Source: a virus
Direction: 5' to 3' (one strand)
Virus record (IMG/VR): IMGVR_UViG_3300032315_001390
Coordinates: 2,417-66,416 of that record
DNA: 64,000 bases
Shown: piece by piece, positions 2,448 through 52,484 of the stretch
How the letters are laid out: each line of letters opens with the position of its first letter
Position numbering within the stretch: position 1 is the first letter of the stretch
Notes under the pieces: generated by a model
Seen by the model: only the letters and a program-made list of their open reading frames with translations
The model's database searches: none
Told to the model about the DNA's origin: nothing
Position numbers and translations under genes: made by a program

Positions 2448-2454
2448 TAAGACT

Positions 2455-2670
2455 ATGCCTATCCAAATAACCATAAACGCAATGACAGGGTCAAGCCCTT
2501 ATGATGTTTATTTATGTGATTCTCAAATAATTAATTGTTTTTACATAACAACAATAACAAGTTTACCGTATGTTTTTGATGTTCCACCACCTTTGGATAG
2601 TCAAGCGTCTGCTTGTGTCAAAATAGTTGATAACCTAAATTGTGAAACATATACCTGTCAAACTTTTTAA
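2455..2670 (+). CDS. small Cys-rich hypothetical protein
   Basis: 71-aa ORF sitting between two giant Cys-rich genes. Confidence 0.3.
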   Translation: MPIQITINAMTGSSPYDVYLCDSQIINCFYITTITSLPYVFDVPPPLDSQASACVKIVDNLNCETYTCQTF

Positions 2671-2673
2671 CAA

Positions 2674-33026: not shown

Positions 33027-33260
33027 ATGGAAAAAAATGAAATGGTAAACCATCCCTCTCACTACGGAGGGATTGACAATCCTTATGAGGCAATTAAAGT
33101 AATCGAAGCTTGGGATTTGGACTTCCATCTTGGAAATACGGTCAAGTATATCTCAAGAGCTGGAAAGAAAAATGTAGACAAAGAACTTGAGGATCTCTTG
33201 AAAGCTAAATGGTATTTGGATAGGAAAATAGAAAAAATTAGAAATCAATTTGATAATTAA
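33027..33260 (+). CDS. DUF3310-like phage protein (HPSHY motif)
   Basis: NHPSHYGG...IEAWDL..GNTVKYISRAG.K; ATG at 33027 just after the GS stop. Confidence 0.45.
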   Translation: MEKNEMVNHPSHYGGIDNPYEAIKVIEAWDLDFHLGNTVKYISRAGKKNVDKELEDLLKAKWYLDRKIEKIRNQFDN

Positions 33261-34375: not shown

Positions 34376-34398
34376 ATGTAATAATTATCGTGTTTATG

Positions 34399-37300
34399 CT
34401 ATCTTTTAAAAAATTTAACGTTGTAAGTGTTTCCAACAACTAAGTCGAAATTGTTCGAAGTGAGACAATTAGAATTTGTTGGGGTTATTTGTAAAATATA
34501 ACTCCCCGATATTCCATTTACTGTAACGGCAATAATTGAAAATTCTCTCATTTTAGATGTTGATGGATCAGAAACACTGAGTAAATCTCCGTTCGACAAA
34601 GAACTTAGAAGTGTTACTGGCCCTGTAATTGAATTTGGGTTAAGTATTAACCTTGCAATTGAACACGAGGAATAAATTGTAACGTTACTTGAATTTCTAG
34701 CATTAAATTCCCCGTTGGTTAAAAATGCAGCGGATTTTGTTGTAAAACTCCAAGAATAAATTGGGAAAGGTGTTGGTGTTGGTGTGGGAGTTGTTGTTGG
34801 TGAAGGTGTTGGATTTAAACAAACATTACATCCTGTGGTTGTGTATCCGGTTATGAAACCATTGTTGTCGGGATATGTGTAATTCTTCAAAATTTGACTT
34901 GTGTCAATTCCTTGAATTATAGTGGGAGGTATAAATACATCTAAATACAAACAACAATCTGTCAGACCTAAATTATCAACGGTGTAATTGTTTTCTACCC
35001 AACTATAGTTGTCATTCATTATTGTGCCTGTGTATACGATGTTTCCAGTACAACAATCTCTTAATACTACACAACTCTCACTAGCGAACCCGATATTGCT
35101 ACAACCACAAGATTGACCTATATCAATTGGAATATTCAAGTAATTTGATACTAGTCCGAATATTGGGTCATTAGGATTATTGACAGTTCCCCACTCATTT
35201 ACTAGAAAACCTATTGGATCTGTTCCTAATGAATATGGTATATTGAGAGGATAAGTAGTTGTAAAATTTGCACAATTGTTAAATGTAAATTGTTCTGTAT
35301 AAAAGGCCCACCATTCAAAAGGGTTTACGGTACAAGCTGTATATGCTGGTAAAAAGTTTATAGTAGTATTTGCGGAGTTTTGTGTAATAGAAATTGTAGT
35401 AAGTGTCGGGAAATTATTACCACCACATGTTGGAATTTCCCATAACTCTGTTAGACCTTGTTGTATTAAATCTGTTGATGTGGCAATGGTAACACACTCA
35501 AAGCCAGAAGCACATCCATAATAACACCCACAATTGTTATTGTTGTTCAAAATTAATAATCTCTGATAGACGTTATTATTTGGTGAACCTGAAATAAACA
35601 ACGGACCTCGATAACTACAAATTGAAAAAGAACTTGGATCCCAACTTGAATCTACATTCATTACAAAATTATTTCTATCACAATCAGTGTAAGTAAATGT
35701 GACCGATTCTCCTAGGTTCAAATTATTAGTAAATTCCCAAGTCGAACAAATCCCGACAGTCATTGGAATTTGTGGAATTGGGTTTGTACAAATTGTTTTT
35801 AATGTTGGTTCTGTTTCGACATAAGGACCACCAGAAGAATCAATGATTAGAGGAATTGTTAAACTACAAATAAAATAAGTATCTGAATATAATGGAAGTA
35901 TAGGATAATTTGTTACACCACTTTGGTCACAAGGATTGTAGACCATATTTTCAATAATTGCTAAATTTGGAACCACAACTTCCCAAGTGAAACATAAACG
36001 TTCAATACAATTATTTGATATTAAAACTGCACATGCAATGTCTTCACAATTAGAATCGAATGGGAAAATAGGTGGAGTACATGAACAAACAGTGAATTTA
36101 GTTTTTGGAAAATAGTGTGTTGTATACCCAAAATCTGTTGGAGATTTCCGTCTTTCAATATCATAGCAATCAGTATATTCTATCCAATCGATACAACCTT
36201 GAATTGTAGAACTTGAACTATTTGGTTGTACTGTGACTAAATATTCGGAACAGGGACAGAGAGGACAAGAACCTGTATTGACAATCGGAACGCAACTTTG
36301 AGAACATATCGGGTTTGATTGACATGCATCACAATATGCAACAGGTTGAGTTTTAGAACAAATAACAATAATTTGATCTGTTGTAAAATACTTATTCTCT
36401 ACAAATGTTGCTACTCCGTTAAAACCAGGCAATGGTCCAGAATTGTTTATATCTATATTTTGATAATTTCCATCACAATCAACATATTGAATCTGATATA
36501 CTGAATTATTAACAATATTTAATGTATATTGAATACAAGGGGCTTCCGTTGTACTTGGACTAGGAGTAAGAGTTGTGGTTGGTGTTTGTGTTACAGTTTG
36601 GGTTGGAGTTATAGTAGGTGTGGTTGTTTGTGTAGGGGTTATTGTAGAAGTTGGGGTTGAAGTTAGTGTTGGTGACGCAGTATTTGTTGGTGTATTGGTC
36701 GGTGTTTTAGTTAAGGTACTTGTTGGTGTTTGAGTGTTTGTTGGTGTTTGAGTGTTTGTAGGAGTATTGGTTGGGGTTTGGCTGGTTGTAGGAGTATTGG
36801 TTGGGGTCGGAGACACCGTAGGAGGTGGAGTTGAACCTGGACTACGGGTTGGTGTTGGTGTTACAGTATTTGTTGGAGTGTTTGTTGGTGTTCGAGAAGT
36901 TGTTGGAGTGTTTGTTGGTGTTCGAGAAGTTGTTGACGTAGGAGTTTGAGTTGGGGTGGAAGTTCGTGTTGGAGTATTTGTTGGTGTAGTTGTTGGAGTA
37001 GATGTAGTTGTCGATGTAGGTGTTGTTGTTTGTGTCGGTGTTGGCGTCTTTGTGGGAGTAGAAGTTACTAGGGGTGTTGGATTACAAAGATTACCACATT
37101 GTAGTTGTTCAGCAATAGTTGCGGCAACACCTGATGAAGTAGAAACAGTTCCTTGTCGAGCACAAATGTATTTCGTTTCACCTACGACCATACTGAAGAC
37201 AGTTACCAATCCAGCACATTGATTATATTGAATTTCACAACCTCCATTTGCGACAACACTATATTGGAAACAAGGAGGACAAGTTGGTGTAACTGTGGTG

Positions 37301-40300
37301 GTCGGTGTTATAGTATTTGTCGGGGTTGTTGTAGGTGTTTGAGTATTTGTTGGTGTTTGACTATTAGTAGGAGTCTGTGTGCGTGTTGGGGTCTGAGTAT
37401 TTGTAGGAGTTTGTGTAGTTGTCGGAGTATTTGTAGGTGTTTGTGTATTTGTTGGAGTGTTTGTTGGAGTTGGTGACTCGGTTGGAGGTGGTGTTGCACC
37501 TGGACTACGAGTTGGTGTAGGTGTTACAGTATTTGACGGAGTGGTTGTTGGTGTTACAGTATTGGTTGGAGTAGTTGTTGGGGTCTGAGAAGTTGTTGGA
37601 GTAGTTGTTGATGTTGATGTTACAGTATTTGTTGGTGTATTGGTCGGAGTTAGAGTTGAGGTACTTGTTGGTGTTTGAGAAGTTGTTGACGTGGGACTTT
37701 GAGTTGGTGTAGATGTTGGTGTGGAAGTAGTAGTCTTAGTTGGTGTTTGGGTTGCCGTAGGTGTTGGATTTGGTACACAATTTTCATAATCCAATCTTAT
37801 ACCTTTACAATTGCTACTAACACCAACAAAATTGAAAATTGAAGAACATGCACAAACACTAATACTGTATCCTAAAGGAAAATACTGAAAACCAGGTGGT
37901 GGTAAAATTTGATTTAAAACATTATTACAATCAGTATATTGAATTTCAGTACACCAATTACAACCAGTACGATCTAATATTTCCACATTCCATGTTTTAC
38001 ATGCACATCTTGTAACAGATGGTGTTGGAGTAAATGTTGGAGTACAAGTCGGAGTTTTGGTATTTGATGAGGTGTTAGTTGGTGTGATGGTATTAGTTGG
38101 TGTTTGACTCTGAGTTGCGGTTCTCGTTGGTGTAATTGTTGAGGTACTTGTCGGTGTGACACTAGGAGTTTGAGTTGGAGTTACTGTTGGGGTTGAGGTG
38201 TTTGTTGGTGTTTGGGTGTTTGTTGGAGTCGTTGTTGGAGTTTGAGTTAAACTACTCGTTGGTGTTTGGGTACTAGTTGGGGTTATGGTGCTTGTTGGAG
38301 TTGTAGTTGGTGTTTGAGTATTTGTAGGTGTTTGAGTATTTGTAGGTGTTTGTGTGTTTGTAGGGGTTTGAGTATTTGTAGGTGTTTGAGTGTTTGTTGG
38401 AGTGTTTGTTGGAGTTGGTGACTCGGTTGGAGGGGGTGTTGCTCCCAAACTACGACTTTGTGTAGGAGTTACAGTATTTGTTGGAGTAACCGAAGGAGTT
38501 ACAGTATTAGTAGGGGTATTAGTTGAAGTTACAGTATTTGTTGGAGTAATTGTTGGTGTTGGTGAACTAGTATTTGTAGGTGTATTGGTGGGTGTTTGTG
38601 TTGAGGTAGGAGTTATTGTATTTGTTGGTGAAAATGAAGGTGTTGGGGTATTAGTAACAGATTGTGTTGGTGTTACAGTTTGAGTGTTTGTTGGGGTTAT
38701 GGATGGTGTAACCGTTTGAGATGGAGTTACAGTAGATGTAACTGTAGGTGTTGGAGTATTAGTTGGGGTTTTAGTCGGTGTTGCCGAGGGACAAGGATCA
38801 CAAGAATCACATATGTTTGGGGTCACACTAGAAATCTGAGTATTGAAATCTAAATCAATAACTCTGTCTCCAATTACATAACATTGAGAATTATACTCCA
38901 AACCGTCTCCAAAAACTATATTAATACTAGATGGAATAGAAACTATGATAGAATCTCCATAAATTTCACAACAATTTTGAGCGACATACAAATTATAAAC
39001 AGTCGTTGGAGTTACCGTTGGTGTAGGTGTCAGAGTTGGAGTAGGTGTTTGAGTTTGAGTCGGTGTTAGAGACGGAAAAGGAACACAACCAGAAGAATAA
39101 AGTGTAACATTACCAGCAGGAGCGGAACAACTTTGTCTAACAAATGCTGGAACGTTACATGAACACACATAGTATACCCAACCTAGTGGGAAAAATTGTG
39201 TAAAACCAAAATCAGATGGTAAATAATCTGAAGTTATACCATTACAATTCCTATATCGTACAGATACAACACAATTTGCTTTGGTTACTTCTAAATAATA
39301 CGTGTTACAAGTACATGGTGATGTTGTCGGTGTTTGTGAAGGAGTTAATGTTGGTGATACAGTATTTGTCGGTGTTTCAGTAGAAGTTGGTGTATTTGTA
39401 GGTGTTTGTGTATTTGTAGGTGTTGGTGTTTCAGTAGAAGTTGGTGTAATTGTGGGTGTTTGTGTATTTGTAGGTGTTGGTGTTTCAGTTGGTGTAGGTG
39501 TTTGGGTAGTTGTAGGTGTTTGAGTGTTTGTTGGAGTGTTGGTTGGGGTTGGTGAATTTGTTTCTGGTGGTGTTGATCCTGGACTACGAGTTGGCGAAGG
39601 AGTTACAGTATTAGTTGGGGTAATCGAAGGAGTTACACTATTCGTTGGAGTAACTGTAGAAGTTACAGTGTTTGTTGGAGTTTTTGTTGTTGTTGATGAT
39701 ACAGTATTTGTTGGTGTATTGGTTGGTGTTTGGGTTAAGGTCGGAGTTACTGTATTTGTTGGTGAAAGTGAAGGTGTTTGGGAATTAGTTAAAGATTGTG
39801 TGGGAGTTACAGTTTTAGTGTTTGTTGGTGTTTGGGTTGGTGTTGGTGTTTGAGTTGGTGTATTGGTTGGAGTTTGAGTTTGTGTTTTAGTTTGTGTTGG
39901 TGTTCTTGTTGGAGTTCTAGTTGCTGATGGTGTCGGGTCTGGACATGGTGAACCAATACTCAACGAACATATATTAGAGATTACTGAATTAACCTGAAAA
40001 TTTACTGTTGTAAGGTCAGTAGGTTCAATAATGTAATATCTTTGACTTGAAAATAAAACACCATCAGTACCAAACTGAATTGTAATTGAACTAGGAACAC
40101 TCAAAACAATTGTACTTGTTACATTAGAACAACAATTTTCAGCTAAGTAATTAGTATATTGGATACTTGGTGTTTGCGTTGGAGTTTGAGTATTTGTTGG
40201 AGTAATGGTTGGAGTTATAGTCGGTGTGGCAGTATTTGTTTGAGTAACCGATGCGGTTAAACTAACAGTTGGTGTTACACTTGGTGTTGGTGGTGGTAGT

Positions 40301-40539
40301 TCATTAGTAAAACAATTTGTTTCTAAAAAAGTTATATTTTCAAACGGTGTATTAAAATATCCGTTTTCGTACCAAATAGTTAAAACTTCACCAGGACTTA
40401 TTTGATTTCCTGTAGATATGAAATCCTCATTACAGTATCTGTAATTAAAAGTGGCAATTACTGGACCATCATTCCGAATAATAGATTTTAAACAACTACA
40501 ACTCACACTTTTTTTATTATAATTATCTGTCAAGTTCAA
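34399..40539 (-). CDS. giant (2046 aa) Cys-rich modular protein with multiple long P/T/S/N/Q linkers (putative virion fibre, adhesin or host-recognition protein)
   Basis: Single uninterrupted ORF; at least 5 Cys-rich modules ([10 protein letters not shown]...[14 protein letters not shown]...CACS, CFQYSVV...[19 protein letters not shown]...CSCT) separated by linkers such as [27 protein letters not shown] repeated four times; no ATG at the 5' end (TTG start at 40539). Confidence 0.7.
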
Positions 40540-40577
40540 TATTTTTAAATAACAAAATATTTATAAAACAAAAAAAT

Positions 40578-41660
40578 ATGAATATATTAATCAACGAAAA
40601 TCAATATAAACTTCTTCAAACAAGTTTAATTGAAAACAATAAGATTATAAACGAAGCTGAATGGTATAACACCTTAGGTGATATACTCGGTATATTCGAT
40701 CCAACAGGAGTTGTTGATTTCGTTAATGGAATTTCTTATATGAAACAGGGGGACACTGTTTTTGGAATACTTTCGATGATTTCAGTAATTCCATATATTG
40801 GTGACTTAGCTGCGAAACCATTATTACTTTTTGGTAAATCAGGTAGAATAATAAAAAATGCTGAAGTTGCACTTAAAATGAGTAAAGCCGGCAATGTGGC
40901 TGGTGCTACCAAAATTATTCAGGATTTGGCTAAATCCAATAAAACTTGGGGTAAGTTGACGAACACAGTTAGAAGTTGGGGACCAACATTAATCCAAAAA
41001 ATAGATAATTTACCTACAGGGTTTTTGACTAAAGGTATTAGAAATACTATCACAGATTGGATTAAATTATTATCAAATGCGAATCAAGGATCAAGAGCTG
41101 CCTCTAGATTAGCTCGTAGAGTATCAGGTAAATTGGCTAAAGGTGGAAAATTAACTCCACAACAAGCTACTGATATTTTGAATCAAATGAAAAAATTAGC
41201 ACAAAAAGATCATAGATTATTCAGTGATTTGGGAGGAAAGCCAAAATTTGGAATGTTTAGTGATCCCAAACAATATGGAAAATGGTCGTGGGAATCTTTC
41301 AAAAATTATCCGTTTAGTGGTGGCATTGGTAGATTTTGGGGAAATAGACAAGTTAGAGGTTTGATGCGTAATACTAAATGGTGGTTAGGATTCCTTGATT
41401 GGGCGGGTTTAGCGAATTTCGTAGGACCTGATGAATTAGAATCACAGATGGGTGATTATACAAATGATTTGAATCAATATTCACAGACACCCGAAGCTCA
41501 AAGTTATTGGAATGATGATTTTGGTCAAACTCAACCTCAAACTAGTGCAACATCAACACCTAATACTCCATCTACACCGCAAAATCAATCACAAGACCTT
41601 CTCACTCAAATTTTATTTGGTGGAATTCCTGGTGTAAAACCTGGTGTTCCAGGTATTTAA
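40578..41660 (+). CDS. hypothetical protein (G/K-rich; divergent from the giant gene)
   Basis: 360-aa ORF. Confidence 0.5.
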   Translation: MNILINENQYKLLQTSLIENNKIINEAEWYNTLGDILGIFDPTGVVDFVNGISYMKQGDTVFGILSMISVIPYIGDLAAKPLLLFGKSGRIIKNAEVALKMSKAGNVAGATKIIQDLAKSNKTWGKLTNTVRSWGPTLIQKIDNLPTGFLTKGIRNTITDWIKLLSNANQGSRAASRLARRVSGKLAKGGKLTPQQATDILNQMKKLAQKDHRLFSDLGGKPKFGMFSDPKQYGKWSWESFKNYPFSGGIGRFWGNRQVRGLMRNTKWWLGFLDWAGLANFVGPDELESQMGDYTNDLNQYSQTPEAQSYWNDDFGQTQPQTSATSTPNTPSTPQNQSQDLLTQILFGGIPGVKPGVPGI

Positions 41661-41678
41661 TAATTAAAATGTAATAAA

Positions 41679-42047
41679 ATGAAAAACGAAGTAATACAAA
41701 ACTTGTTAATGGCGCAAAATCAAATGAAGATTTTTCATTGGCAAACAGATTCTTATGCTCAACATCAAGCATTTGGTTCAATTTATGACGCATTAACAGA
41801 TTTGATCGATACATTTGTGGAGGTGTGTATGGGTAAACATGGTCGACCACAATTTGATCAAGGATTAAATTTACCTTTACTAGATCTCACAAGTGTGGAT
41901 GTGATGGAATATGTTGATTCAGTTGTTCAATTTTTAATTTCCCTTACAAATGTATATGATCCTAGTTCTGATAGTGATCTATTGAATATTAGAGATGAAA
42001 TATTAGCAGAATTCAATAAGTTAAAATATTTACTGACTCTGAATTGA
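41679..42047 (+). CDS. hypothetical protein, weak Dps/ferritin-like 4-helix resemblance
   Basis: KIFHWQTDSYAQHQAFGSIYDALTDLIDTFVE resembles the Dps N-terminal H..HW...F...FEE.Y.E...LID region; but at 122 aa it is shorter than Dps. Confidence 0.25.
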   Translation: MKNEVIQNLLMAQNQMKIFHWQTDSYAQHQAFGSIYDALTDLIDTFVEVCMGKHGRPQFDQGLNLPLLDLTSVDVMEYVDSVVQFLISLTNVYDPSSDSDLLNIRDEILAEFNKLKYLLTLN

Positions 42048-43456
42048 TGAAAAAAATTATTTCAGAAGGTGGACTGAGAGATATCAAAAAACTTGCCAAA
42101 AGATATAAAAAGGCAAAAATTTATTACCACCAAGATTTGGATGGTGTAACAACCGCTCTCGGTATGAAAAAATATCTACAAGACAATGGTATTAAAGTTG
42201 TCGATTGTGAAATAATTCAATATGGTGACAGAGAATTTTCCATTAAAAAAACGGACGCTAGTGGGGAAGTAATGCCTGTTTTGGTAGATTTTGCACATGG
42301 TAAACCTATGTTTGTCATACATACCGATCATCATGATCGACAAGCGGGAGCTGAGGAAACAAAATCAAAATATTTTGGACAATCTAGATCCAATGTAGCC
42401 ACAATATCACAAAAAGTTTCACCTGTAGATATATTTCCTGATGAAGACATAAAATTAATATCTATGGTAGATTCCGCAGATTTCGTAAGAAATGGAATTA
42501 CCACTCAGGATGTTATCAATTATATTTTTAGGTTAGACAAACAAAAAGAACTTAGGAGAAATAAAGTTTTATTAGGATTAGTTTGTAATAAACTATTATT
42601 AGCATTCAAAAATAAACCAGGATTTTTGGACGATTTGGTCATGAATTGTCAACCATCTTTACTCTCGATTTATAACAGAATCAAAAAGTTGATGGTGGAA
42701 CGAAATTATGTCAAACCAGAAATATTACAAAAGAACATGGAGGATTATACTCAACAAATGAGTAATAGTCCAAACGTTAAACTAGATGATTCAATCATCA
42801 TACAATATGGTGGAGGTTCTATGATGAAACCTGGTTCATATGATAGATATACACCATTTAAAAATTACCCTAGTGCTGACTTTTTGGTAATTGCTTGGCC
42901 AATGGGATTGGTACAAGCAAGTTGTAATCCATTCAAAGAAGAAAGAGGATTAAAGGGTGTAAATTTAGGTGAAATCGCTCAAGAAGTTATTAACAGATGG
43001 AAAAAACAATTAGAGGAAAGAGTTGTACCATTATCAACGATAAAATATGTTTCTGAAAAATCAGTTGTAGATGAATCTGTAGGGTTTACACTTAAGGATT
43101 TCGTCGCACTTTTCGGATCAAAGTATTCTGGTATGATAACACCGACAGAACGTGAAGAAATTTCACAAATAATGAAAAAACCTTACTACGAATTATCAGA
43201 AGATGAATTTTTAAAATTGGATGAAGTTAAAATAAGTTGTTGGGATTTAATACAGGCGATGAGTGGTGGACACAAATGTATAACGAATATTTCAGGTTTG
43301 AATTATTTAGGTAGAGCTAAAAGACCACCACTAGGATCATATAGATATGATCCAGAATCAGATGATACTCCATACATTAAATTTACAAAAATGATACAAA
43401 ATGAATTTGTGGAAAAACTTAAAGAAAAAATCACACAAAGTAAAAATGGAAATTGA
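42044..43456 (+). CDS. DHH-DHHA1 family phosphoesterase (NrnA/RecJ-like)
   Basis: Motif I HQDLDGV, motif III IHTDHHD, C-terminal DHHA1 GGH motif (MSGGHKC). Confidence 0.6.
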   Translation: MMKKIISEGGLRDIKKLAKRYKKAKIYYHQDLDGVTTALGMKKYLQDNGIKVVDCEIIQYGDREFSIKKTDASGEVMPVLVDFAHGKPMFVIHTDHHDRQAGAEETKSKYFGQSRSNVATISQKVSPVDIFPDEDIKLISMVDSADFVRNGITTQDVINYIFRLDKQKELRRNKVLLGLVCNKLLLAFKNKPGFLDDLVMNCQPSLLSIYNRIKKLMVERNYVKPEILQKNMEDYTQQMSNSPNVKLDDSIIIQYGGGSMMKPGSYDRYTPFKNYPSADFLVIAWPMGLVQASCNPFKEERGLKGVNLGEIAQEVINRWKKQLEERVVPLSTIKYVSEKSVVDESVGFTLKDFVALFGSKYSGMITPTEREEISQIMKKPYYELSEDEFLKLDEVKISCWDLIQAMSGGHKCITNISGLNYLGRAKRPPLGSYRYDPESDDTPYIKFTKMIQNEFVEKLKEKITQSKNGN

Positions 43457-43607
43457 AAAACTTATTACTGACTTGAACAATCTCCAAAAGAACAAAGTTC
43501 AATTTTTCAAATTAGTTTTTGGTAAAGAAAATATTGACGTGGGAAAATTAATGGATGAGATAGATTTTTTGCGAAAGGTATCGGAATCCACTACTTTACG
43601 CAAAAAA

Positions 43608-44015
43608 TTACTTTAGTAATCGTGAAATTAATCGACGTAATCCTAGAGATACGTTATCAGGTAATTCATTTTTTTTGAAATATCCACATTCAGTATGTTC
43701 ATCACCATCAATAGCATTTTCTAAATCAGGAAATATTTTTTCTTTTTGTTTCGAAAGAAAAACGTAGAACAAGCCTTTTGATTTGATACCTGTTCTATTT
43801 TTCCTCAATATGATCGCAACCTTTTTCAAGGGTCCTGACAATTCGTGATCAGTTTCTTCCAAAAATTCTCTTCTCACACCATATTCCAAGTTCTCGTTCG
43901 GTTCAATTTTTCCAGCAGGAATACTCCATTCACCTGGTCGGTCACCTGATGAATTTCTTTTACAAAGTAGACACTCATTATTGACAACAACCAAAGTACC
44001 TCCGTATCTTTTCAT
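43608..44015 (-). CDS. NUDIX hydrolase
   Basis: Nudix box GKIEPNENLEYGVRREFLEETDHE (Gx5Ex7REUxEExGU-like). Confidence 0.7.
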   Translation of the reverse strand: MKRYGGTLVVVNNECLLCKRNSSGDRPGEWSIPAGKIEPNENLEYGVRREFLEETDHELSGPLKKVAIILRKNRTGIKSKGLFYVFLSKQKEKIFPDLENAIDGDEHTECGYFKKNELPDNVSLGLRRLISRLLK

Positions 44016-44038
44016 TTTTTGAATATTTAGTTATAAAT

Positions 44039-44383
44039 ATGATTATAAAAATAAATAATATCGATCTTAATTGTAAAGTAGTCTCTACACCCGAAAAAAT
44101 AATTCAGGGAATGATGAATAAAACTTTTGATGGGTTTGACTGTATGTTGTTTTTATTACCTAAATTTGGTCTTCAGTCTTTTTGGATGAAAAATTGTATC
44201 ATTCCTTTAGACATTTTATTCATTGATGATAATCATATTGAGTCGATTTCACACAACTGTCCACCTTGTAAGTCGGATGATTGTCCATCATATAAAGGTT
44301 ATGGAAGTATGGTTTTAGAATTACCTGGTGGGTATTGTAAAAAAAATGGTATCACCATAGGAGATAAAATTAATTTTCAGTAA
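44039..44383 (+). CDS. DUF192 (COG1430)-like protein
   Basis: MLFLLP...FWMKNC.IPLDILFID pattern typical of DUF192. Confidence 0.45.
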   Translation: MIIKINNIDLNCKVVSTPEKIIQGMMNKTFDGFDCMLFLLPKFGLQSFWMKNCIIPLDILFIDDNHIESISHNCPPCKSDDCPSYKGYGSMVLELPGGYCKKNGITIGDKINFQ

Positions 44384-44426
44384 ATTTTTTTGGATATCAT
44401 TTTTTTTCGTATCTTAGCGGTATAAA

Positions 44427-45583
44427 CTACCCAATCACATTTACAGGATGATTGGGTTTTAAACCTGACACAGAATGCATAACACAATACAGAGTCGATT
44501 TTTCAGGTTGATTTATAGCAACCCCAAGCAGAGAAATATTCTTACTAGCATTATTGTCAGCATCAAGAATTTTTTCCTTGCAATTTTTATTTGCACATTT
44601 AAAAACCTTATTAGTTCGTTTTCCAATGTGTTTGCATACATGACACATTTGACTAGTGTATGCAGGAGGAACAACAACCAACTTAACCCCAAAAAGGATG
44701 CTCTTGTATTCCAAAAAAGAACGAAGTTGATGGAAATTCCAGTTACCAAGTTTTGTTGTAAACGATTTATTTCTTTTTTTAGAAGTAAATCGAATACCAG
44801 TCAAATTTTCAATAGCAATTCCTTTACTTTGTTCTTTAGCAAGTTTTACAATAGATTTGGAAATAGTATGATTGATTATTGTTGCCGTTGTTTTTTCCCT
44901 ACCAGAAAGCCGTTTAGACAATTTCTTACAATTCCTTTTTGTGGAACGTTTAGAAGTGTCTGCCTTTGTTTGGATAGAACTACGTATATTTTGTTTTTTT
45001 TCCTATAATCATTGAGCCATTCACTCGAATGTTTAATATTGTTAGAGGTGGATATAATATCGGTAATACCAAAGTCAATACCGATAAACTCTTCTACATC
45101 CGTTATTTTTTCATCAGGTACTTCTACTGTTTGGAACAAATAAAATTTTCCTTTTTTATAAACAAGATCAGCCTCACCTTTGATATAAGGAATATAATTT
45201 CTGTTGTGACATATAAATGGAAGTTTTTTCAAACGACCACCGACTGTCCAAATGGAAACGGTATCATTTGGAGTATACGAAAGAATTCGTGGGTCGTAAG
45301 TTATGCTTCCCAACGATCTAAAGCTACGTTTGGTTTTTTTATCCAACTTATAAGCATCTGTCACTTTACTGATACAACGTATAATTACTTGAGCAGAAAG
45401 ATTGGTGGACTGTTTGATCGAATGATAAACTTCATTGTGAATTTTAAATTGATTAAAAATTCTTTTTTCCCAAATTACATCAGAAATTATATTACAAGCC
45501 AAATTTGCTTCTTGAATGGTATTAAACAAATATTTAGATTGTTCATCTGTAGGAAGAAGTTTTATTTTAAGAGTCAGTTTCAT
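44427..45583 (-). pseudogene. tnpB: IS200/IS605-family TnpB (OrfB) RNA-guided nuclease gene, split into two overlapping ORFs by a frameshift near 44876-44921 (44876..45583 and 44427..44921)
   Basis: N part: EFIGIDFGITD (RuvC-I); C part: VVPPAYTSQMCHVCKH...CANKNC (RuvC-II plus zinc finger), DADNNASKNI (RuvC-III); combined length about 385 aa, the normal TnpB size. Confidence 0.65.
44430..44460 (+). terminator. hairpin CCCAATCA-N11-TGATTGGG followed by TTTT (intrinsic-terminator-like on the + strand; it encodes the last TnpB codons on the - strand)
   Basis: 8-bp perfect stem 44430-37 / 44449-56, then a T-run at 44457-60, downstream of + gene 44039..44383. Confidence 0.5.
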
Positions 45584-45687
45584 TCATACATAAATAGTAC
45601 AAAAAAATTAAAAAATCAAATATTAGAAAAAATAATTATAGGAAATGCAAAAGCAGGTGCATTCCTCCCATCCACACTTCGTGATGA

Positions 45688-46182
45688 ATGGGTTTCCTGC
45701 ATTTATATTATATGAATATTTTTTGGTTAGATTACGATACAAAAAAATGTGCTCAGTATCATTGTGACAAACATTGTACCAAAATGATTGTGGAGTATGC
45801 TCAATTACTGTGTACATCACACCATGTTGCTAATACTAATAGTGATGATATTCCATACAAAATAGTACACAAAAATCATCCTTGTGCTATTTGGGCAAGA
45901 GAGTCATTATCCAATTATCTGATATTGTGTGAATTGGGTTTAGAACTATGTTCAGAATACACACATCGTTACAAAAAAACACACAAATCCAAAGAAGTTC
46001 TAGAGTGGTGCTTGATTAATAAATTAAAAATCGATGACAAGGGTTTTACAAAACCACCATTAGCAATGCCTGATGAGTTTAAGATCGAGGACGTTGTTGA
46101 ATCTTATCGTAGGTATTATGTGGGTGAAAAAAAACGTTTTGCGACTTGGAAAAATAGAAATATACCAATTTGGTTTAATTGA
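45688..46182 (+). CDS. hypothetical protein, possible pyrimidine-dimer DNA glycosylase (T4 DenV-like)
   Basis: Weak collinear resemblance to T4 endonuclease V (CDKHCTKMIVEYAQ ~ ADQHLMAEYRE; ILCELGLELCSEY ~ IELIAECLKRGF; C-terminal TWKNRNIPIWF ~ TWYKYYGKAIYA). Confidence 0.3.
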   Translation: MGFLHLYYMNIFWLDYDTKKCAQYHCDKHCTKMIVEYAQLLCTSHHVANTNSDDIPYKIVHKNHPCAIWARESLSNYLILCELGLELCSEYTHRYKKTHKSKEVLEWCLINKLKIDDKGFTKPPLAMPDEFKIEDVVESYRRYYVGEKKRFATWKNRNIPIWFN

Positions 46183-46188
46183 AAAAAA

Positions 46189-46542
46189 ATGGAAATTAGA
46201 ACAACAAAATTTGAAGAAGTTGAAAAAGAATTTGGTTCTTTGAAACCAGATTTACTTGATGAATCCGCAATTTATCAGGGTGCGTATTTTAAAGATAAGT
46301 TGGTTGGGGTAGTTTCATATGTACAACATCCTAACCATATTTATTTGGGACATGCTTTTGTGGTTGATGAACATCGAGGTAAAGGTATTTATAAGTTACT
46401 TTGGGAGTACAGAAATATGAAAGTCAAAGAATTAGGAAAACCACTCATTGCTCATTGCAACGTGTCTAGTTTGAAACACTTTTTGAATAATGGTTTCATT
46501 TTGGATAAAGGGTTGTTTTTAGTTACAAAGAATCACGAATGA
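46189..46542 (+). CDS. GNAT-family N-acetyltransferase
   Basis: FVVDEHRGKGIYKLLWEY (acetyl-CoA-binding R/QxxGxG/A motif A) in a 117-aa protein. Confidence 0.6.
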   Translation: MEIRTTKFEEVEKEFGSLKPDLLDESAIYQGAYFKDKLVGVVSYVQHPNHIYLGHAFVVDEHRGKGIYKLLWEYRNMKVKELGKPLIAHCNVSSLKHFLNNGFILDKGLFLVTKNHE

Positions 46543-47228
46543 AAGAAATAGATGCACTTTTAATATCCGACGTTCATTTAGGATCTAAAGGTTGTAATGC
46601 TGATAAACTTTTAGAAGTTCTCAAACAGTACAAACCTAAAGAATTAATTATCGTAGGTGATTTCATTGATGGGTGGTTACTCAAAAGAAGGTTTTATTGG
46701 CCACAATCCCATACAAACATTTTACGTAAAATTTTATCTTTTTCAAAAAACGGCACAAAAATCCATTACATTACCGGAAATCACGATGAATACTTACGTA
46801 ACTATGTTCCATTAATTTTAGGAAACATTGAAATTAAAGATGAAATGGTTTGGAACAATTACTATATTGCTCATGGTGATTTATACGATGGAGTAGTACA
46901 GTTGAAATGGTTAGGTCATCTTGGTAGTTGGGGTTATGAACTCGCAATTTTGGTAGACAGAACGTTAAAAAAACTTGGATATAAAAAATCCTTGAGTTTA
47001 TTTTTGAAATTGAAAGTAAAAGAAGCGGTTAAATTCATTACAAGATTTGAAAAACAACTTGAATATCAAGCCGAAAAAAGAAATTGTATAGGAGTGATTT
47101 GTGGTCACATTCATACACCATTAATAGATTTGAACAGAAAAATTCATTATATTAATTGTGGAGATTGGATCGAAAGTAATTCATACATAATTTACAATAA
47201 AAATAAATTTGTTTTAAAAAAAATTTAG
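46539..47228 (+). CDS. calcineurin-like metallophosphoesterase (LpxH/YaeI-like)
   Basis: SDVHLG, VGDFIDGW, GNHDEY, AHGDLYDG, GHIHTP motifs. Confidence 0.65.
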   Translation: MKEIDALLISDVHLGSKGCNADKLLEVLKQYKPKELIIVGDFIDGWLLKRRFYWPQSHTNILRKILSFSKNGTKIHYITGNHDEYLRNYVPLILGNIEIKDEMVWNNYYIAHGDLYDGVVQLKWLGHLGSWGYELAILVDRTLKKLGYKKSLSLFLKLKVKEAVKFITRFEKQLEYQAEKRNCIGVICGHIHTPLIDLNRKIHYINCGDWIESNSYIIYNKNKFVLKKI

Positions 47229-47283
47229 TTGGAAATTCAAATTTTTTACACTAAATTTGTAATTCAAATTATTATCTAAAAAA

Positions 47284-47553
47284 ATGAATACAGAAATCAA
47301 AATACTTGTAACAGCAACTTTTGTTGATGGTAGAGCTTATTTCAATATTAAATTACCAGAGGATGGCCAAAATAATGAAACCATTACTTTGAATACTATT
47401 CGTATGATATTAACTGGTGCTGTTGCTATGACTGTTAGAATGTCAGAAAATGACGTTGAGGCTATGAAACAAGTTATTGAACTTTTGAATGATCAATTTG
47501 TAAGTCCCGATGCATTTGAGGATGGTAAAATTATGGTACCAGAAAAAAATTAA
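47284..47553 (+). CDS. hypothetical protein
   Basis: 89-aa ORF with a TAAATTTG motif upstream. Confidence 0.4.
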   Translation: MNTEIKILVTATFVDGRAYFNIKLPEDGQNNETITLNTIRMILTGAVAMTVRMSENDVEAMKQVIELLNDQFVSPDAFEDGKIMVPEKN

Positions 47554-47564
47554 ATGTAAAAGTT

Positions 47565-48188
47565 ATGAAAAGTAAATTTGAATTCAAAGACAATCGTCCT
47601 TTTAGTGTAAAGGCGAAAGATTTTATGCAATCACTCCTATTTTGGAGAGGTAGAAAAAAAGGAATTATCTACACTCGTGATATTGGGTGGAGTGATATTC
47701 GTGAAATATTCTTTCCTAAAAACTTTGAGGAAAAATATGGTTATTTAGGTTCAGTTCCTTATGACCCAAGGACAAATACTTTTAAGGCACTTTTACCCTT
47801 AGTTCTTGCTATGGATTATGAAGCAAAACCTAAATGGTGTCCTCGTTGGGTATTGAGATTCCTTTATGTATTTGGGAATGATAAATCCATTGTAAGGGTT
47901 CGTAATAGGTTTTTGTCTAATTTATCTAAAAAACTAACCAAAGGAATTACACTATACGATTACAAGACTAAATGGTCGTACTACGATTTAAGGATTAGTA
48001 TTGAAGCTCCCCAATATCTACAAGATTTGGCTGATGATATTGAACGTGGTTACTACCAAAGAGGTAAGAGAGAAGAACTACTTCTTAGCATTAAAAGGAT
48101 TCAACCTGATTTTGATAAGTGGATGTCCATCAAAGATCTTGAAAACTATTTAGAAACTTTAACAGAAACAAAAAATGGCAACTCTTGA
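47565..48188 (+). CDS. hypothetical protein
   Basis: 207-aa ORF. Confidence 0.45.
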   Translation: MKSKFEFKDNRPFSVKAKDFMQSLLFWRGRKKGIIYTRDIGWSDIREIFFPKNFEEKYGYLGSVPYDPRTNTFKALLPLVLAMDYEAKPKWCPRWVLRFLYVFGNDKSIVRVRNRFLSNLSKKLTKGITLYDYKTKWSYYDLRISIEAPQYLQDLADDIERGYYQRGKREELLLSIKRIQPDFDKWMSIKDLENYLETLTETKNGNS

Positions 48189-48741
48189 AGTAACAAACGA
48201 ACAATTAAGGTTAATCCAACAAGCTTTGGATATGTATTCTCGAATTGGAATAGGACAGATGTGGGTAATTAAAGACCACCCTACATTCTATAATGTTTTG
48301 CGGGATAAACTCCGACCTAAAAAACAATTAGAAGTTGGTGACCGAACTGAAAGAGGTGAAGTCGTAGAAATTGGAAAAGGTTATATCAAAACTTCTGGCC
48401 GTTGGGGCAATGGTGAAGAAATTCGCACTTGGACTGATGCTGAGAATGTAAAACTATCCATTGATTATGGCTTGTATCATCAAATTAGAGATGAAGCGGA
48501 TAAAATACTGAGTGAAGGTAGAAACAAACTCCTACAAGAAGATTTGGGTAAAAATGGAAGTTATAGTATTTATAACCCCAATGAAGTGGATGAAAGTTGT
48601 CGGGTTGCTTTTGACTTGATACAGGTTATTAGGCACGAATTTTGGAAAAACGATCCAGATAGAAGTAGCATAACTGTTGATTCATCAGTACATTTGAGCA
48701 CAAAGGAATCAGGTAAAATTAAATGTAAAATAGATGTCTAA
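48175..48741 (+). CDS. hypothetical protein
   Basis: 188-aa ORF. Confidence 0.45.
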   Translation: MATLEVTNEQLRLIQQALDMYSRIGIGQMWVIKDHPTFYNVLRDKLRPKKQLEVGDRTERGEVVEIGKGYIKTSGRWGNGEEIRTWTDAENVKLSIDYGLYHQIRDEADKILSEGRNKLLQEDLGKNGSYSIYNPNEVDESCRVAFDLIQVIRHEFWKNDPDRSSITVDSSVHLSTKESGKIKCKIDV

Positions 48742-49012
48742 ATACAAACCCATAGGGATTACACCCAAAGAAAAAGCAGACCAGTTGTTAGAATCTGTTA
48801 TGTTTAGTCTAAATAAACAATTTGACCCAAACACAGGTAAAGACCAACCAATTCCGCGCAATCCATACTATAAAGAATGTGCATTAGCAATTGTAAACGA
48901 AATCTTTGAGTTTATGAAAAAAGATGATTTAGACTCCGAAACGGCTTATTGGGCTAATCATCCTATTTCTAATTTTTGGGTTGATGTTGAACGTGAAATT
49001 AAATTGAGATGA
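48734..49012 (+). CDS. hypothetical protein
   Basis: 92-aa ORF. Confidence 0.4.
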   Translation: MSKYKPIGITPKEKADQLLESVMFSLNKQFDPNTGKDQPIPRNPYYKECALAIVNEIFEFMKKDDLDSETAYWANHPISNFWVDVEREIKLR

Positions 49013-50031
49013 ACTTACTTATAACTTTAGAAAAATATTTTCAAGAAGGTTGGTTGATTAAACAAACTCATCCAACTTTACCTCTGACAATTTGGAATTA
49101 TTCCCAATCAACCCAATACGAGGGTAAGTGGGATGAGATAACCCTTATGTGTAGAGGTTTGGTAACAGATGACAATGGAAATATCGTTGCTAGACCTTTC
49201 AAGAAGTTTTTCAATTTAGAAGAGAATAAACACACACCAACCTCAGAATTCGAAGTTTATGAAAAGATGGATGGTTCTTTGGGTAATATGTTCAAATACA
49301 ATGGAGAGCTTGTTTGTGCTACCCGTGGTTCATTTACCTCAGAGCAATCTGAATGGATGTCAAATTTTGCCAAAAAATACAACTATAAAGACATCTTAGT
49401 TGATGGATTAACCTACTTGTTTGAAATAATTTATCCCGAAAATAGAATTGTAGTGGATTATGGTAACCAAGAAAGATTAGTATTGTTAGTTATTATAAAA
49501 ACCCAAACTGGTGAAGAAGTATCCTACGATGAAATTTCTCAATTTGATGGTTGGGATATTGTCAAAAAATACGATGGAATTAGGGACTACACCCAACTGA
49601 AGAGTATAATTTCTAACAACCAAGAAGGTTTCGTTGTAAGGTTTTCAAACGGAAATAGGGTAAAAATCAAAGGAGAAGAATACTTGCGTCTTCATAAGAT
49701 TATGACTGAAGTTTCAACTAAATCTGTTTGGGAGATTTTATCCAATGGAGGTAATATGGAAGAGATACTCAGAGATGTTCCTGATGAGTTTTTTGATAAA
49801 ATAAAGGAATATGAAATGGAACTTGTTTCTAAATTTGATGATATAAAAGATGAATATAATTGGATTTATAAAATCTTAGAAAGAAATGAGGAAATTTCAG
49901 AAAATAGAGCTATCTTTGCCCAATACGCTAAAAGATACAAACACCCCTCCATTTTATTTGGTCTATTGGATGGTAAAAATATAGACCCTATGATTTGGAA
50001 AATTATACAACCCGAATACAAAAAACTATGA
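49009..50031 (+). CDS. ATP-dependent RNA ligase, T4 Rnl1 (RnlA)-like
   Basis: CRGLVTDDNGNIVARPFKKFFNLEENKHT matches T4 Rnl1 [33 protein letters not shown]; nucleotidyltransferase motif I EKMDGSL (KxDGSL, as in T4 KEDGSL); later FVVRFSNGNRVKIKGEEY (motif IV/V-like). Confidence 0.7.
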   Translation: MNLLITLEKYFQEGWLIKQTHPTLPLTIWNYSQSTQYEGKWDEITLMCRGLVTDDNGNIVARPFKKFFNLEENKHTPTSEFEVYEKMDGSLGNMFKYNGELVCATRGSFTSEQSEWMSNFAKKYNYKDILVDGLTYLFEIIYPENRIVVDYGNQERLVLLVIIKTQTGEEVSYDEISQFDGWDIVKKYDGIRDYTQLKSIISNNQEGFVVRFSNGNRVKIKGEEYLRLHKIMTEVSTKSVWEILSNGGNMEEILRDVPDEFFDKIKEYEMELVSKFDDIKDEYNWIYKILERNEEISENRAIFAQYAKRYKHPSILFGLLDGKNIDPMIWKIIQPEYKKL

Positions 50032-50494: not shown

Positions 50495-50701
50495 ATGAAA
50501 AAATTGGTGCTCTTGATATGTTTTTTCACAATCTCCTGTAATAATGATCGTCCGTGGCGAGTCATTGAGGTAAGACAGAAAAGTGAAATGTGTGAGTACG
50601 TTTTGAGTCGTAGTAACGGACTCGGTCCACAATTAAAAGAAGTAATAGACACTTGTGGAAAATATCAATGGAATCAAATAATTCAAAACAAAGACCTATG
50701 A
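50495..50701 (+). CDS. small lipoprotein
   Basis: MKKLVLLICFFTISC signal peptide with lipobox (TISC). Confidence 0.45.
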   Translation: MKKLVLLICFFTISCNNDRPWRVIEVRQKSEMCEYVLSRSNGLGPQLKEVIDTCGKYQWNQIIQNKDL

Positions 50702-51177
50702 AACAATACTTAGAGTGGCTTGAAAAACAAATTGACTTTTGTTTAGAGGATAAAACGATGCAAAGAGAACATTGGGCTTTTTGTAGGGCATACGAGAAGT
50801 TCAAAAGCCTTGAAACAACAATTGAATCAGAAGAACTCACGCCCCACATTGCCGAATCAGAAGAACTCACGCCCCACATTGAATACTACGACAACGGAAA
50901 TGTGCGTATTAAAGGACAAAATAATTCCAAAGGACAACGAGAAGGTATTTGGGAATTCTTCTACGAAAACGGAAACATCCAAAAGAGAAGCCCATACAAA
51001 GAGGGTAGGAGGGATGGAATTGAGGAGATATTCTATGAAAACGGAAACATCGAATGTAGAACCTCTTACGAAAAGGGTATTTGGAATGGAGATGAGGAGA
51101 GGTTCTATTCAAATCCCGGAAATATCCGTATTAGAACTCCATACAAATGGACCCAATTGCTTCGAGAAATTTCATGA
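50698..51177 (+). CDS. MORN/YwqK-repeat protein (paralogue 1 of 3), contains a 30-nt tandem duplication
   Basis: Repeats YYDNGNVRIKGQ..G.REG.WEFFYENGNI..R.PYK.G..DG (MORN-variant, YwqK antitoxin-like); start at 50698 overlaps the lipoprotein stop (ATGA). Confidence 0.6.
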   Translation: MKQYLEWLEKQIDFCLEDKTMQREHWAFCRAYEKFKSLETTIESEELTPHIAESEELTPHIEYYDNGNVRIKGQNNSKGQREGIWEFFYENGNIQKRSPYKEGRRDGIEEIFYENGNIECRTSYEKGIWNGDEERFYSNPGNIRIRTPYKWTQLLREIS

Positions 51178-51248
51178 ACAAGGAAACATCGTCGAAACCC
51201 GTCATTGGAAAGACGGAAAACCAATTGAAGTAACTAAACACTAAAACT

Positions 51249-51572
51249 ATGACCAACGAACTCACACTCCACATTCAATACTACGACAAAGGAAATGTAT
51301 GTATTAAAGGACAAAGAAACTCCGAAGGACAACGAGAGGGGTTTTGGGAGTATTTTTATCCAAACGGAAACATCCATTGGAGAATCCCATTCAAAGAGGG
51401 CAAGATAGATGGAATTTGGGAGTGGTTCTATCCAAACGGAAACATCCGTTGTAGAACCCCATACAAGGAGGGTGAGATGGATGGAATTGAGGAGAGGTTC
51501 TATGAAAACGGAAACATCATTAAAACCTTTCTATGGAAAGACGGAAAACTAATTGAAGAAACTAAACACTAA
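51249..51572 (+). CDS. MORN/YwqK-repeat protein (paralogue 2)
   Basis: Same repeat units; ends ...KDGKLIEETKH, like its paralogues. Confidence 0.6.
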   Translation: MTNELTLHIQYYDKGNVCIKGQRNSEGQREGFWEYFYPNGNIHWRIPFKEGKIDGIWEWFYPNGNIRCRTPYKEGEMDGIEERFYENGNIIKTFLWKDGKLIEETKH

Positions 51573-51576
51573 ACCT

Positions 51577-51900
51577 ATGAAAAACAAACTCACACCCTAC
51601 ATTGAATACTACGACGACGGAAATGTACTTGTCAAAGGACAACTGAACTCAAAAGAGCAAGAAGAAGGTCTTTGGGAGTGGTTCCGGGAGAATGGAATCA
51701 TACATTTTAGAAGCCCATACAAACGAGGTAAGATAGATGGTATTGAAGAGTGGTTCTGCCCAAAAGGAAACATCCGTATAAGAACCACGTATAAAGATGG
51801 TGTGTGGTGTGGAATCCAAACCTTTTACGATGAACAAGGAAACATCACCGAAACCCGTAATTGGAAAGATGGAGAAATAATTGAAGAAACTAAACACTAA
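51577..51900 (+). CDS. MORN/YwqK-repeat protein (paralogue 3)
   Basis: Same repeat units; ATG at 51577, 3 nt after the previous stop. Confidence 0.6.
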   Translation: MKNKLTPYIEYYDDGNVLVKGQLNSKEQEEGLWEWFRENGIIHFRSPYKRGKIDGIEEWFCPKGNIRIRTTYKDGVWCGIQTFYDEQGNITETRNWKDGEIIEETKH

Positions 51901-51917
51901 ATGTTGTAAAACAAGAT

Positions 51918-52376
51918 ATGAAAATTAAAGAACAGATACAAAAACATTTTGTCGTGGCCATGAAAGCCAAAGACGAAGTCGCAAAATCAGCGTTAAGCGG
52001 TGCAAAAGCCGCAATTACATTGGCGGAGAAACAACACGGATCGTTTGATTTATCGGACGAAGATGTCATCAAAGTTTTATCCAAAGCGATCAAACAACGT
52101 GAAGAGTCTCAAAAGATTTATGAAGATGCTGGACGGGATGAACTTGCCCGCAAAGAAGCGGATGAAGCGTGTGTATTACGAAGGTACATGCCAGCTCAGA
52201 TGAACCCACAAGAAATTCGTGATGCTCTTGTTGAAATTATGAAAGAATTCGCTGGTGTTGTGTCAAACCCAACAGCTCTCCAGGGTAAGACTATCGGAGA
52301 GTTCAACAAGCGATTCAACGGTCGCGCTGACATCGGTACAGTCAAAGAAATTTTAGCAAAATTGTCTCAAACATGA
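51918..52376 (+). CDS. yqeY: GatB/YqeY domain protein
   Basis: Collinear with YqeY: IKEQIQKHFVVAMKAKD..., LSDEDVIKVLSKAIKQREES...YEDAGRDELARKEADEACVLRRYMP...GRADIGTVKEILAKL. Confidence 0.75.
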   Translation: MKIKEQIQKHFVVAMKAKDEVAKSALSGAKAAITLAEKQHGSFDLSDEDVIKVLSKAIKQREESQKIYEDAGRDELARKEADEACVLRRYMPAQMNPQEIRDALVEIMKEFAGVVSNPTALQGKTIGEFNKRFNGRADIGTVKEILAKLSQT

Positions 52377-52484
52377 ACCACCAAGACAACAAAGATCCTA
52401 TCTGATTTTTTTTGAAAAAAAAAGTTTTCAAAATTTTGGATATTTGAATATTAGTCTTATCTTTGCTTAGTTAAAAAAACAAAT

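Follow-up and report, generated by a model that had tools for sequence, protein, structure and literature searches.

Probable recent inactivation of the tnpB gene in a tnpA-less IS200/IS605-family element of a phage genome

The minus strand of a 64,000-nucleotide (nt) stretch of viral DNA (positions 2,417 to 66,416 of the IMG/VR record IMGVR_UViG_3300032315_001390, hereafter the window) carries at 44422..45711 a 1290 bp element of the IS200/IS605 family of insertion sequences (IS). This is a tnpA-less, IS1341-like element consisting of tnpB and an omega-RNA region, and its tnpB is split by the loss of a single nucleotide. The nuclease gene is most likely dead in this copy, i.e. the element is probably a recently pseudogenised passenger IS. 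An earlier note on this DNA, made from the sequence alone, had described a phage-borne IS200/IS605-type tnpB with a frameshift, hairpins at its ends and no tnpA, and in these essentials it was right. Of the three interpretations that it offered (a domesticated nuclease, a decaying IS or a programmed frameshift) the decaying IS fits best, the lesion being specific to this lineage while relatives are either intact or broken elsewhere.

The interrupted tnpB gene

The gene is divided between two overlapping minus-strand open reading frames (ORFs), 44876..45583 and 44427..44921, both as given by the earlier note. The 5′ part (44876..45583) is an ORF of 235 amino acids (aa), hereafter ORF1, comprising native residues 1-194 followed by a 39-aa out-of-frame tail, and holds the RuvC-I aspartate (GIDFG, in the motif GIDFGI). 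The 3′ part (44427..45002) is open in its frame from 45002, and is listed as the 164-aa ORF 44427..44921; it encodes the RuvC-II glutamate (IAIEN), a zinc finger (CHVCKH...CANKNC) and the RuvC-III aspartate (DADNNA). The lesion therefore parts the RuvC-I half of the protein from the half with RuvC-II, the zinc finger and RuvC-III.

Addition of one base inside a run of eight adenines (A8, 45001..44994) generates a continuous protein of 385 aa. The repaired protein scores 138.1 bits with the NCBIfam model guided_TnpB (NF040570, cut-off 100), spanning profile positions 2-386 of 389; neither fragment alone reaches that cut-off (36.4 and 97 bits). It also matches the Pfam family Cas12f1-like_TNB (PF07282) at 1.7e-17 (63.8 bits against a cut-off of 26.3). 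The family assignment of the earlier note is thus borne out by these two profiles and not by OrfB_IS605 (PF01385), with which the score of 25.5 bits is under the cut-off of 30.5. The closest solved chains are Cas12f (9nzq) and TnpB (9nzp), with E values of 3e-19 to 1e-13. GIDFG, IAIEN, DADNNA and the CxxC...CxxC finger align with the RuvC Asp, Glu and Asp and the zinc finger of solved Cas12f and TnpB chains, so that on alignment to Cas12f 9nzq the RuvC triad and zinc finger of a TnpB are complete. All the catalytic motifs previously noted are therefore present, with one reassignment. The zinc finger had been placed in RuvC-II, but RuvC-II is the Glu of IAIEN and the finger lies between RuvC-II and RuvC-III. 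From its family membership the repaired TnpB is predicted to perform RNA-guided cleavage dependent on a transposon-adjacent motif (TAM). More than 3000 homologues are present in the protein collection. The top three (P0001-P0003), encoded intact in other phages, have 385 aa and 91% identity and align colinearly with the repaired protein along its full length (100%). By comparison the window copy has no single uninterrupted frame, because a 1-nt deletion splits it.

Related loci are denoted here by L numbers. Alignment with the intact copies L001 and L011 places the deletion between 45003 and 45002, in codon 195 and directly 5′ of the A8 run. The junction DNA is TATAGAGAAAAAAAAC in L001 and TATAGGGGAAAAAAAC in L011, while that of the window is TATAG-GAAAAAAAAC. 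Across the frameshift site (44993..45003) AGAG or AGGG has thus become AGG, followed by A8, and the heptamer A_AAA_AAC (44999..44993) lies in the frame of ORF1. The base missing relative to L001 is the A between two Gs, and the length of the run is unchanged at A8. Since the second frame is open up to 45002, both frames are open over 45002..44876 (129 nt). The interval 44876-44921, in which the earlier note had located the frameshift, is simply where the out-of-frame tail of ORF1 ends.

The deletion is very unlikely to be a sequencing or assembly artefact concealing an intact gene. It does fall in a low-complexity purine tract, but the exact 235-aa product, the 164-aa ORF and the same neighbours recur on three other contigs (ERZ28593915, ERR2848561 and ERZ21844512) that come from different samples and pipelines (an ENA scaffold, a Logan contig and an ENA+JGI contig). 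Moreover the A run has the same length as in L001 and the lost base lay between Gs, and a search of 5.8 billion proteins yielded no intact allele of this copy (>91% identity). The lesion is carried by L012 and L013, which match the window with 99.975% identity over 15.9 kb and 100% over 7.4 kb, respectively; L012 departs from the window at four positions, all within 49108..49173 and outside the element. A frameshift that recurs in three or more further assemblies of this phage cannot be a one-off error. As judged from these sequences, the lesion is apparently fixed in the sampled genomes of this phage and absent from relatives.

Among 158 related loci tnpB is one uninterrupted gene in 127, and a shift at residue 195 occurs in none. 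The closest relatives (L001 and L011) read straight through the site, and interrupted relatives break elsewhere, i.e. near residue 40 in L078, 50 in L240 and 290 in L237. We note two further interruptions: in L220 an insert of ~800 bp (~2186..3001) divides tnpB at residue 171, and the gene of L249 is also frameshifted, at a different position from the window copy.

The A_AAA_AAC heptamer conforms to the canonical X_XXY_YYZ slippery site in the frame of ORF1. A slippery heptamer had been anticipated at 44876-44921; there is one, but it is found at the true lesion and not in that interval. The 45002..44876 overlap contains no further slippery heptamer in frame, and a late shift within it would replace ~35 native residues. 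No stimulatory structure was found 3′ of the slippery site, where 94 nt fold with -14.8 kcal/mol (z -1.1) and the first helix is ~20 nt away. Because none of the 158 loci breaks here and a stimulatory structure is lacking, this is not a conserved programmed frameshift, contrary to one of the earlier proposals; the presence of a canonical heptamer exactly at the lesion nevertheless makes low-level rescue conceivable. Branch-specific counts of nonsynonymous and synonymous changes are 34:27 for the window copy against 24:41 on the other two branches of an unrooted comparison, and pairwise dN/dS (the ratio of the two rates) is 0.14-0.17 for the window copy against 0.09 between the two intact copies. 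This pattern would fit, weakly, a brief relaxation of constraint on the window copy.

Borders, ends and omega-RNA

Identity to the copies in L001 (92.9%) and L011 (91.6%), which lie in other phage contexts, ends at the borders of the element, so that the shared stretch is limited to ~44420..45716. The copies in L001-L010 adjoin thioredoxin and that in L011 adjoins MazG, with 92-93% nucleotide identity in the element only; the presence of such copies in two unrelated phage contexts demonstrates mobility of the kind that characterises IS200/IS605 elements. An element-free site was found by scanning viral contigs with the neighbouring gene. The contig L094 (IMGVR_UViG_3300002408_004332) comes from a sister phage with flanking DNA ~96% identical to the window, the encoded NUDIX, DUF192 and phrog_624 proteins being 99, 95 and 94% identical, respectively. 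It is without exactly the segment 44422..45711, and its DUF192 and phrog_624 genes are 38 nt apart. These borders replace the extent of 44384..45690 suggested in the earlier note.

The empty site in L094 reads TTCAT/ACCGCTAAG... (where / marks a junction), i.e. TTCAT/ACCGC compared with TTCAT/element/ACCGC in the window. On the element strand the empty site is ...AATATTCAT/ACCGCTAAGATACG... and the filled site is ...AATATTCAT/ATAATATAAATGCAGG...GGGTAGTTTAT/ACCGCTAAGATACG...; the junction is ambiguous by 3 nt (ATA), and the family consensus resolves its placement. The element is thus inserted 3′ of TTCAT (45716..45712, minus strand), the target and TAM pentamer flanking its left end, without target duplication. 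In 58 of 81 distinct relatives TTCAT occurs 110-180 nt 5′ of the tnpB ATG, while the control pentamers ATGAA and TACTT are found in the same zone in 5-9, and TTTAT in 22. No second copy or isolated end of the element came to light within the window, the only matches being AT-rich and due to chance, and a blastn search ('distant') of 43000..47000 against deposited phages gave no match. With both IS ends, a TAM and a precise empty site, the element is an ordinary mobile copy.

We note that the 4.2-kb contig L094 corresponds to 33072..48928 of the window as a patchwork of segments with 92-99% identity. It is without 42063..43556 (a 470-aa gene), 46177..47239 (GNAT and metallophosphatase) and 47561..48714, and largely without 33245..40541 (including a protein of 2046 aa). 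This reflects either extreme mosaicism or a chimeric contig.

The left end (45584..45711, 128 nt, minus strand) contains two hairpins and the region 5′ of tnpB. It is near-identical in L001 and L011, and its DNA folds with -11.3 kcal/mol (z -2.1). The subterminal hairpin CCCATTCATCAC-GAA-GTGTGGATGGG (45692..45667) has its foot 19 nt from the terminus, and its arms vary in a compensating fashion among relatives; a second, imperfect hairpin is located at ~45665..45641. Only the imperfect one had been reported previously; it exists, but the counterpart of the right-end hairpin is the adjoining 45692..45667. The perfect hairpin described at the 3′ end of tnpB is present, as CCCAATCA/TGATTGGG (44456..44449 with 44437..44430, minus strand). 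This right-end hairpin CCCAATCATC...GTGATTGGG (44456..44430) is 8 nt from the terminus and resembles that of the left end, giving the element the subterminal hairpins at both ends that are the end architecture of IS200/IS605; terminal inverted repeats are absent. In ~100 related loci (viral contigs and metagenome-assembled genomes (MAGs) dominated by Bacteroidota) almost all right ends terminate in ...GGTAGTTTAC or ...GGTAGTTTAT, beyond which the sequences diverge, the conserved terminus in aligned relatives being ...TAGTTTAY.

There is no room for tnpA in the element, since 128 nt of left end and tnpB fill its whole length, and tblastn with a TnpA probe over the 64-kb window returned nothing below E 7. 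The probe was an IS608 TnpA sequence, used together with a regular-expression scan; as a positive control, it detected Y1 TnpA directly 5′ of tnpB in the distant relatives L234, L218 and L201. Neither element nor window has a Y1 TnpA, which makes the element an IS1341-like family member without tnpA, in agreement with the earlier note. Most tnpB loci are without tnpA and rely on TnpA in trans (Meers et al. 2023, 10.1101/2023.03.14.532601).

In most relatives TAnnTTTG-like motifs (e.g. TATCTTTGC and TATATTTGC) lie 10-25 nt 5′ of the tnpB ATG; at this position the window copy has the T-run variant AATTTTTTTGTAC. The TAnnTTTG motif resembles the -7 promoter element of Bacteroidota.

The omega-RNA was modelled from an alignment of the 3′-terminal 170 nt from 46 distinct elements. 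A nested-only RNAalifold consensus did not recover stem A, whose loop is engaged in pairing with the right-end terminus, and it was replaced by a hand-written model with four helices and a pseudoknot. RNAalifold pairs RTAAAY, in the loop, with the GTTTAY that closes the right end. On the minus strand of the window covariation in the 46 sequences defines a scaffold of at least 44422..44523. It contains stem A (44523..44519 with 44510..44506), the pseudoknot between its loop ATAAAT (44516..44511) and the terminal GTTTAT (44427..44422), stem B (44501..44494 with 44469..44461) and the right-end hairpin as a further helix (44456..44430). Across the 46 sequences 89.3% of cells are paired, compared with 25-51% when the partners are slid by 1-3 columns; 22 of the 27 pairs exhibit compensatory change, and the observed values were reached in 0 of 500 shuffles. 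The window sequence forms every pair of the scaffold, and its own fold has z -3.3. The scaffold thus lies inside the 3′ end of tnpB and finishes exactly at the right end. The earlier note had correctly assigned an omega-RNA to the 3′ end of the gene and had looked for it downstream of 44427, but the scaffold is within the 3′ end of the ORF (~44523..44422), and only the guide extends beyond the element. An Rfam scan of 43800..46300 with E up to 10 gave chance snoRNA and CRISPR-repeat matches only, and no omega-RNA family.

We also observe that the last base of the element (44422, alignment column 209) covaries perfectly with the R at 44516 (column 88), ~95 nt upstream. The pair is G-C in 37 sequences, A-U in 7 (including the window) and G-U in 2, so the last nucleotide of the transposon is constrained by an RNA pseudoknot.

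The predicted guide, ACCGCTAAGATACGAAAAAA (44402..44421, minus strand), directly follows the conserved right-end terminus. In a set of 249 loci the L094 empty site is the only place where TTCAT is followed by the guide sequence. The sole near match in the window is the right-end junction itself (44406..44426), which reads TTTAT+ACCGCTAAGATACGAA and is one base off the TAM. TnpB elements avoid self-cutting by means of a junction pentamer that differs from the TAM, and here the single C/T difference (TTTAT against TTCAT) would shield the donor from self-cleavage.

Probable inactivation, possible rescue and other readings

A tnpA-less IS200/IS605 element has inserted 3′ of TTCAT between the DUF192 gene and the phrog_624 start codon. 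The steps that follow are drawn from established TnpB biology, as reportedly set out by Karvelis et al. in 2021 and as described by Meers et al. (below). An intact copy would be mobilised in single-stranded form by a Y1 TnpA acting in trans. Intact TnpB with its omega-RNA would cut the element-free site TTCAT+ACCGCTAAGATACGAA, as in the sister phage L094, after which recombination with a genome that carries the element would introduce a copy of it (homing or retention). The copy in the window could be mobilised, or its RNA used, only through proteins provided in trans. TnpB-driven homing is established, and the identity of TAM and transposon target site is a general principle with which TTCAT agrees (Meers et al. 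2023, 10.1101/2023.03.14.532601).

We favour a recently inactivated copy, and regard rescue by slippage as its main rival. Several observations weigh against inactivation. There is one lesion and no further stop, and the catalytic residues, both ends and all the scaffold pairs are intact, so that any decay must be very recent. The lesion is directly 5′ of A8 and A_AAA_AAC, where slippage would bring back precisely the original frame and length. The signal in dN/dS is weak and its branch unrooted, and the replacements specific to the window copy are mostly conservative. If the frameshift were functionally compensated, by polymerase slippage from A8 to A9 or by a -1 ribosomal shift on A_AAA_AAC, the phage would make a low, perhaps usefully low, dose of full-length active 385-aa TnpB and the element would still be a homing or retention device. 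Slippage on A runs is established in bacterial IS elements and dnaX. Here a -1 shift would give ...RKKNQNIRSS... and an A9 transcript ...RKKKQNIRSS..., compared with ...REKKQNIRSS... in intact relatives. The canonical placement of the heptamer in the frame of ORF1, the otherwise undamaged gene, RNA scaffold and ends, and the fixation of the allele across samples point in the same direction. However, intact relatives carry the same in-frame A8 run, which was therefore not created for slippage, and no relative needs a shift at this site. In addition a stimulatory structure at the usual downstream spacing was not found, A8 and ...AAC heptamers are weak slippery sites in the bacteria tested, and nonsynonymous change is raised on the branch of the window copy. 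On balance we consider compensation unlikely. There is a smaller chance that TnpB restored by slippage acts as an attenuated RNA-guided homing nuclease, cutting TTCAT+ACCGCTAAGATACGAA in co-infecting sister phages such as L094. In that event the element and linked markers would be driven through the phage population, in the manner of the T4 Seg and Mob endonucleases.

The protein might instead have been domesticated or split, acting as a two-subunit nuclease, or as an N-terminal fragment that serves the phage together with the RNA (e.g. a TldR-like RNA-guided repressor or a weapon against competitors). Fixation of the allele in this phage would be consistent with this, and nuclease-dead domesticated relatives of TnpB (TldR), some of them phage-borne, have been described (10.1101/2023.11.30.569447). 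Yet with its two IS ends, TAM and precise empty site this is an ordinary mobile copy that retains its catalytic residues, near-identical copies occur in unrelated phage contexts, the architecture is seen in no relative, and the guide matches solely the element's own empty site. A split protein faces the further difficulty that the second frame offers no start codon before the TTG at 44921, use of which would lose 27 native residues. Domestication, which the earlier note had listed first, is not supported, given the ends, the TAM, the empty site and the dispersed copies, and like splitting it has a very low probability. An origin as a giant-virus Fanzor was considered because the sequence is AT-rich, and was rejected as the context is phage-like and the relatives are bacterial or from phages.

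Related systems, neighbouring genes and phage context

The element resembles IS200/IS605 elements of the ISDra2 and ISGst type in many respects. In these the target pentanucleotide serves as the TAM as well, both ends bear subterminal hairpins and the target is not duplicated. Their tnpB encodes the RuvC Asp/Glu/Asp triad and zinc finger, and the scaffold, which contains a pseudoknot, overlaps the 3′ end of tnpB and finishes at the right end, leaving the flank to supply the guide. The terminus of the right end likewise resembles the TAM yet differs from it (here TTTAT and TTCAT). The copy in the window differs in having no tnpA, a broken tnpB and the TAM TTCAT. The TAM of ISDra2 is TTGAT, and its TnpB is so distant that a sequence search of solved structures with E up to 0.01 does not return it. 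The TAM of the ISGst2 TnpB is TTTAT, and TTCAT has been reported for the IscB of ISGst5 (10.1101/2023.03.14.532601).

Solitary tnpB elements in phage genomes are documented (PMC10286775). ISH12 in Halobacterium phage ChaoS9, ORF81 of cyanophage PA-SR01 and Thermus phage MN1 share the solitary tnpB, with products of ≤41% aa identity to the window protein, and the element in the window is a damaged new example of this known class. The free-standing homing endonuclease genes of T-even phages (Seg/Mob) are alike in the expected cutting of an element-free allele and copying by recombination. They differ in that recognition is by protein rather than RNA-guided, and in that an element of the window type could also transpose given TnpA; here, furthermore, the nuclease gene is broken. 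'Non-restorative homing' by TnpB between co-infecting phages has been proposed (2026 review, PMC13565253). TldR proteins are also TnpB-derived and sometimes phage-encoded, and use an omega-RNA-like guide. They have lost the RuvC residues and transposon ends, and their guides target host promoters, while the window copy has lost neither and its guide matches its own insertion site.

For annotation, the two ORFs should be treated as one tnpB pseudogene in a defined 1290-bp IS, and not as two genes. The filled site and exactly matching empty site in two ~96% identical phages are a clean natural example, giving both the TAM (TTCAT) and the native 16-20-nt target for this TnpB subfamily. The intact 91% identical proteins P0001-P0003, with the RNA model, would allow TnpB homing between co-infecting phages to be tested.

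Any relative of this TnpB was found in just 28 of 50,697 deposited phage genomes, all with ≤41% identity, while relatives were confirmed at 123 metagenomic viral loci and also occur in Bacteroidota MAGs. The subfamily is thus absent from isolated phages and common in metagenomic viral contigs. The window is phage-like, with DNA primase, SbcC/SbcD, a sigma factor, two T4-type RNA ligases and several PHROG families, and no tRNA was found in it; the phage context is also shown by hundreds of related IMG/VR contigs. The host of this large phage is probably a member of the Bacteroidota, because a 1301-aa protein has SprB repeats and most close TnpB relatives are affiliated with that phylum.

On the plus strand the element is flanked by the DUF192 gene (44039..44383) on its right-end side and by a phrog_624 'DNA binding protein' gene (45712..46182), whose start codon it abuts and whose product is Pyr_excise-like, slightly under the Pfam cut-off. 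TTCAT is ATGAA on the plus strand and holds the phrog_624 start codon (45712..45714), so that the element is flush against that ATG. The entire upstream region of the gene has been replaced by the AT-rich left end. In related insertions (L014-L093 and L174-L197) an ORF of at least 50 aa begins at the ATG within the TAM in 24 of 49, compared with 33% for ATGAA sites overall, a modest excess over a poor control. Insertions that spare genes may perhaps be selected for in densely coded phage genomes. In L095 (3321..3950) and L096, relatives with 77-79% identity, a gene of 209 aa lies between DUF192 and phrog_624; it is nitroreductase-like as judged from the sequence, no family search having been run. 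In this phage group the space between the two genes is a variable site of insertion.

Elsewhere in the window two very large proteins, the 1301-aa protein with SprB repeats (2674..6579) and one of 2046 aa (34399..40539), are full of Pro-Thr linker repeats (TPTPTPTNT...), and such repeats on the minus strand account for the extreme GC skew (+0.42 to +0.56) at 36-40 kb. At ~50650..52380 there are three or four tandem small paralogous ORFs with units of the form '...YYDNGNV.IKGQ.NS.GQREG.WE.FY.NGNI...' that by eye are MORN- or YwqK-like. Lastly, 31742..33019 is a phage-encoded glutamine-synthetase-like gene (Gln-synt_N and Gln-synt_C).

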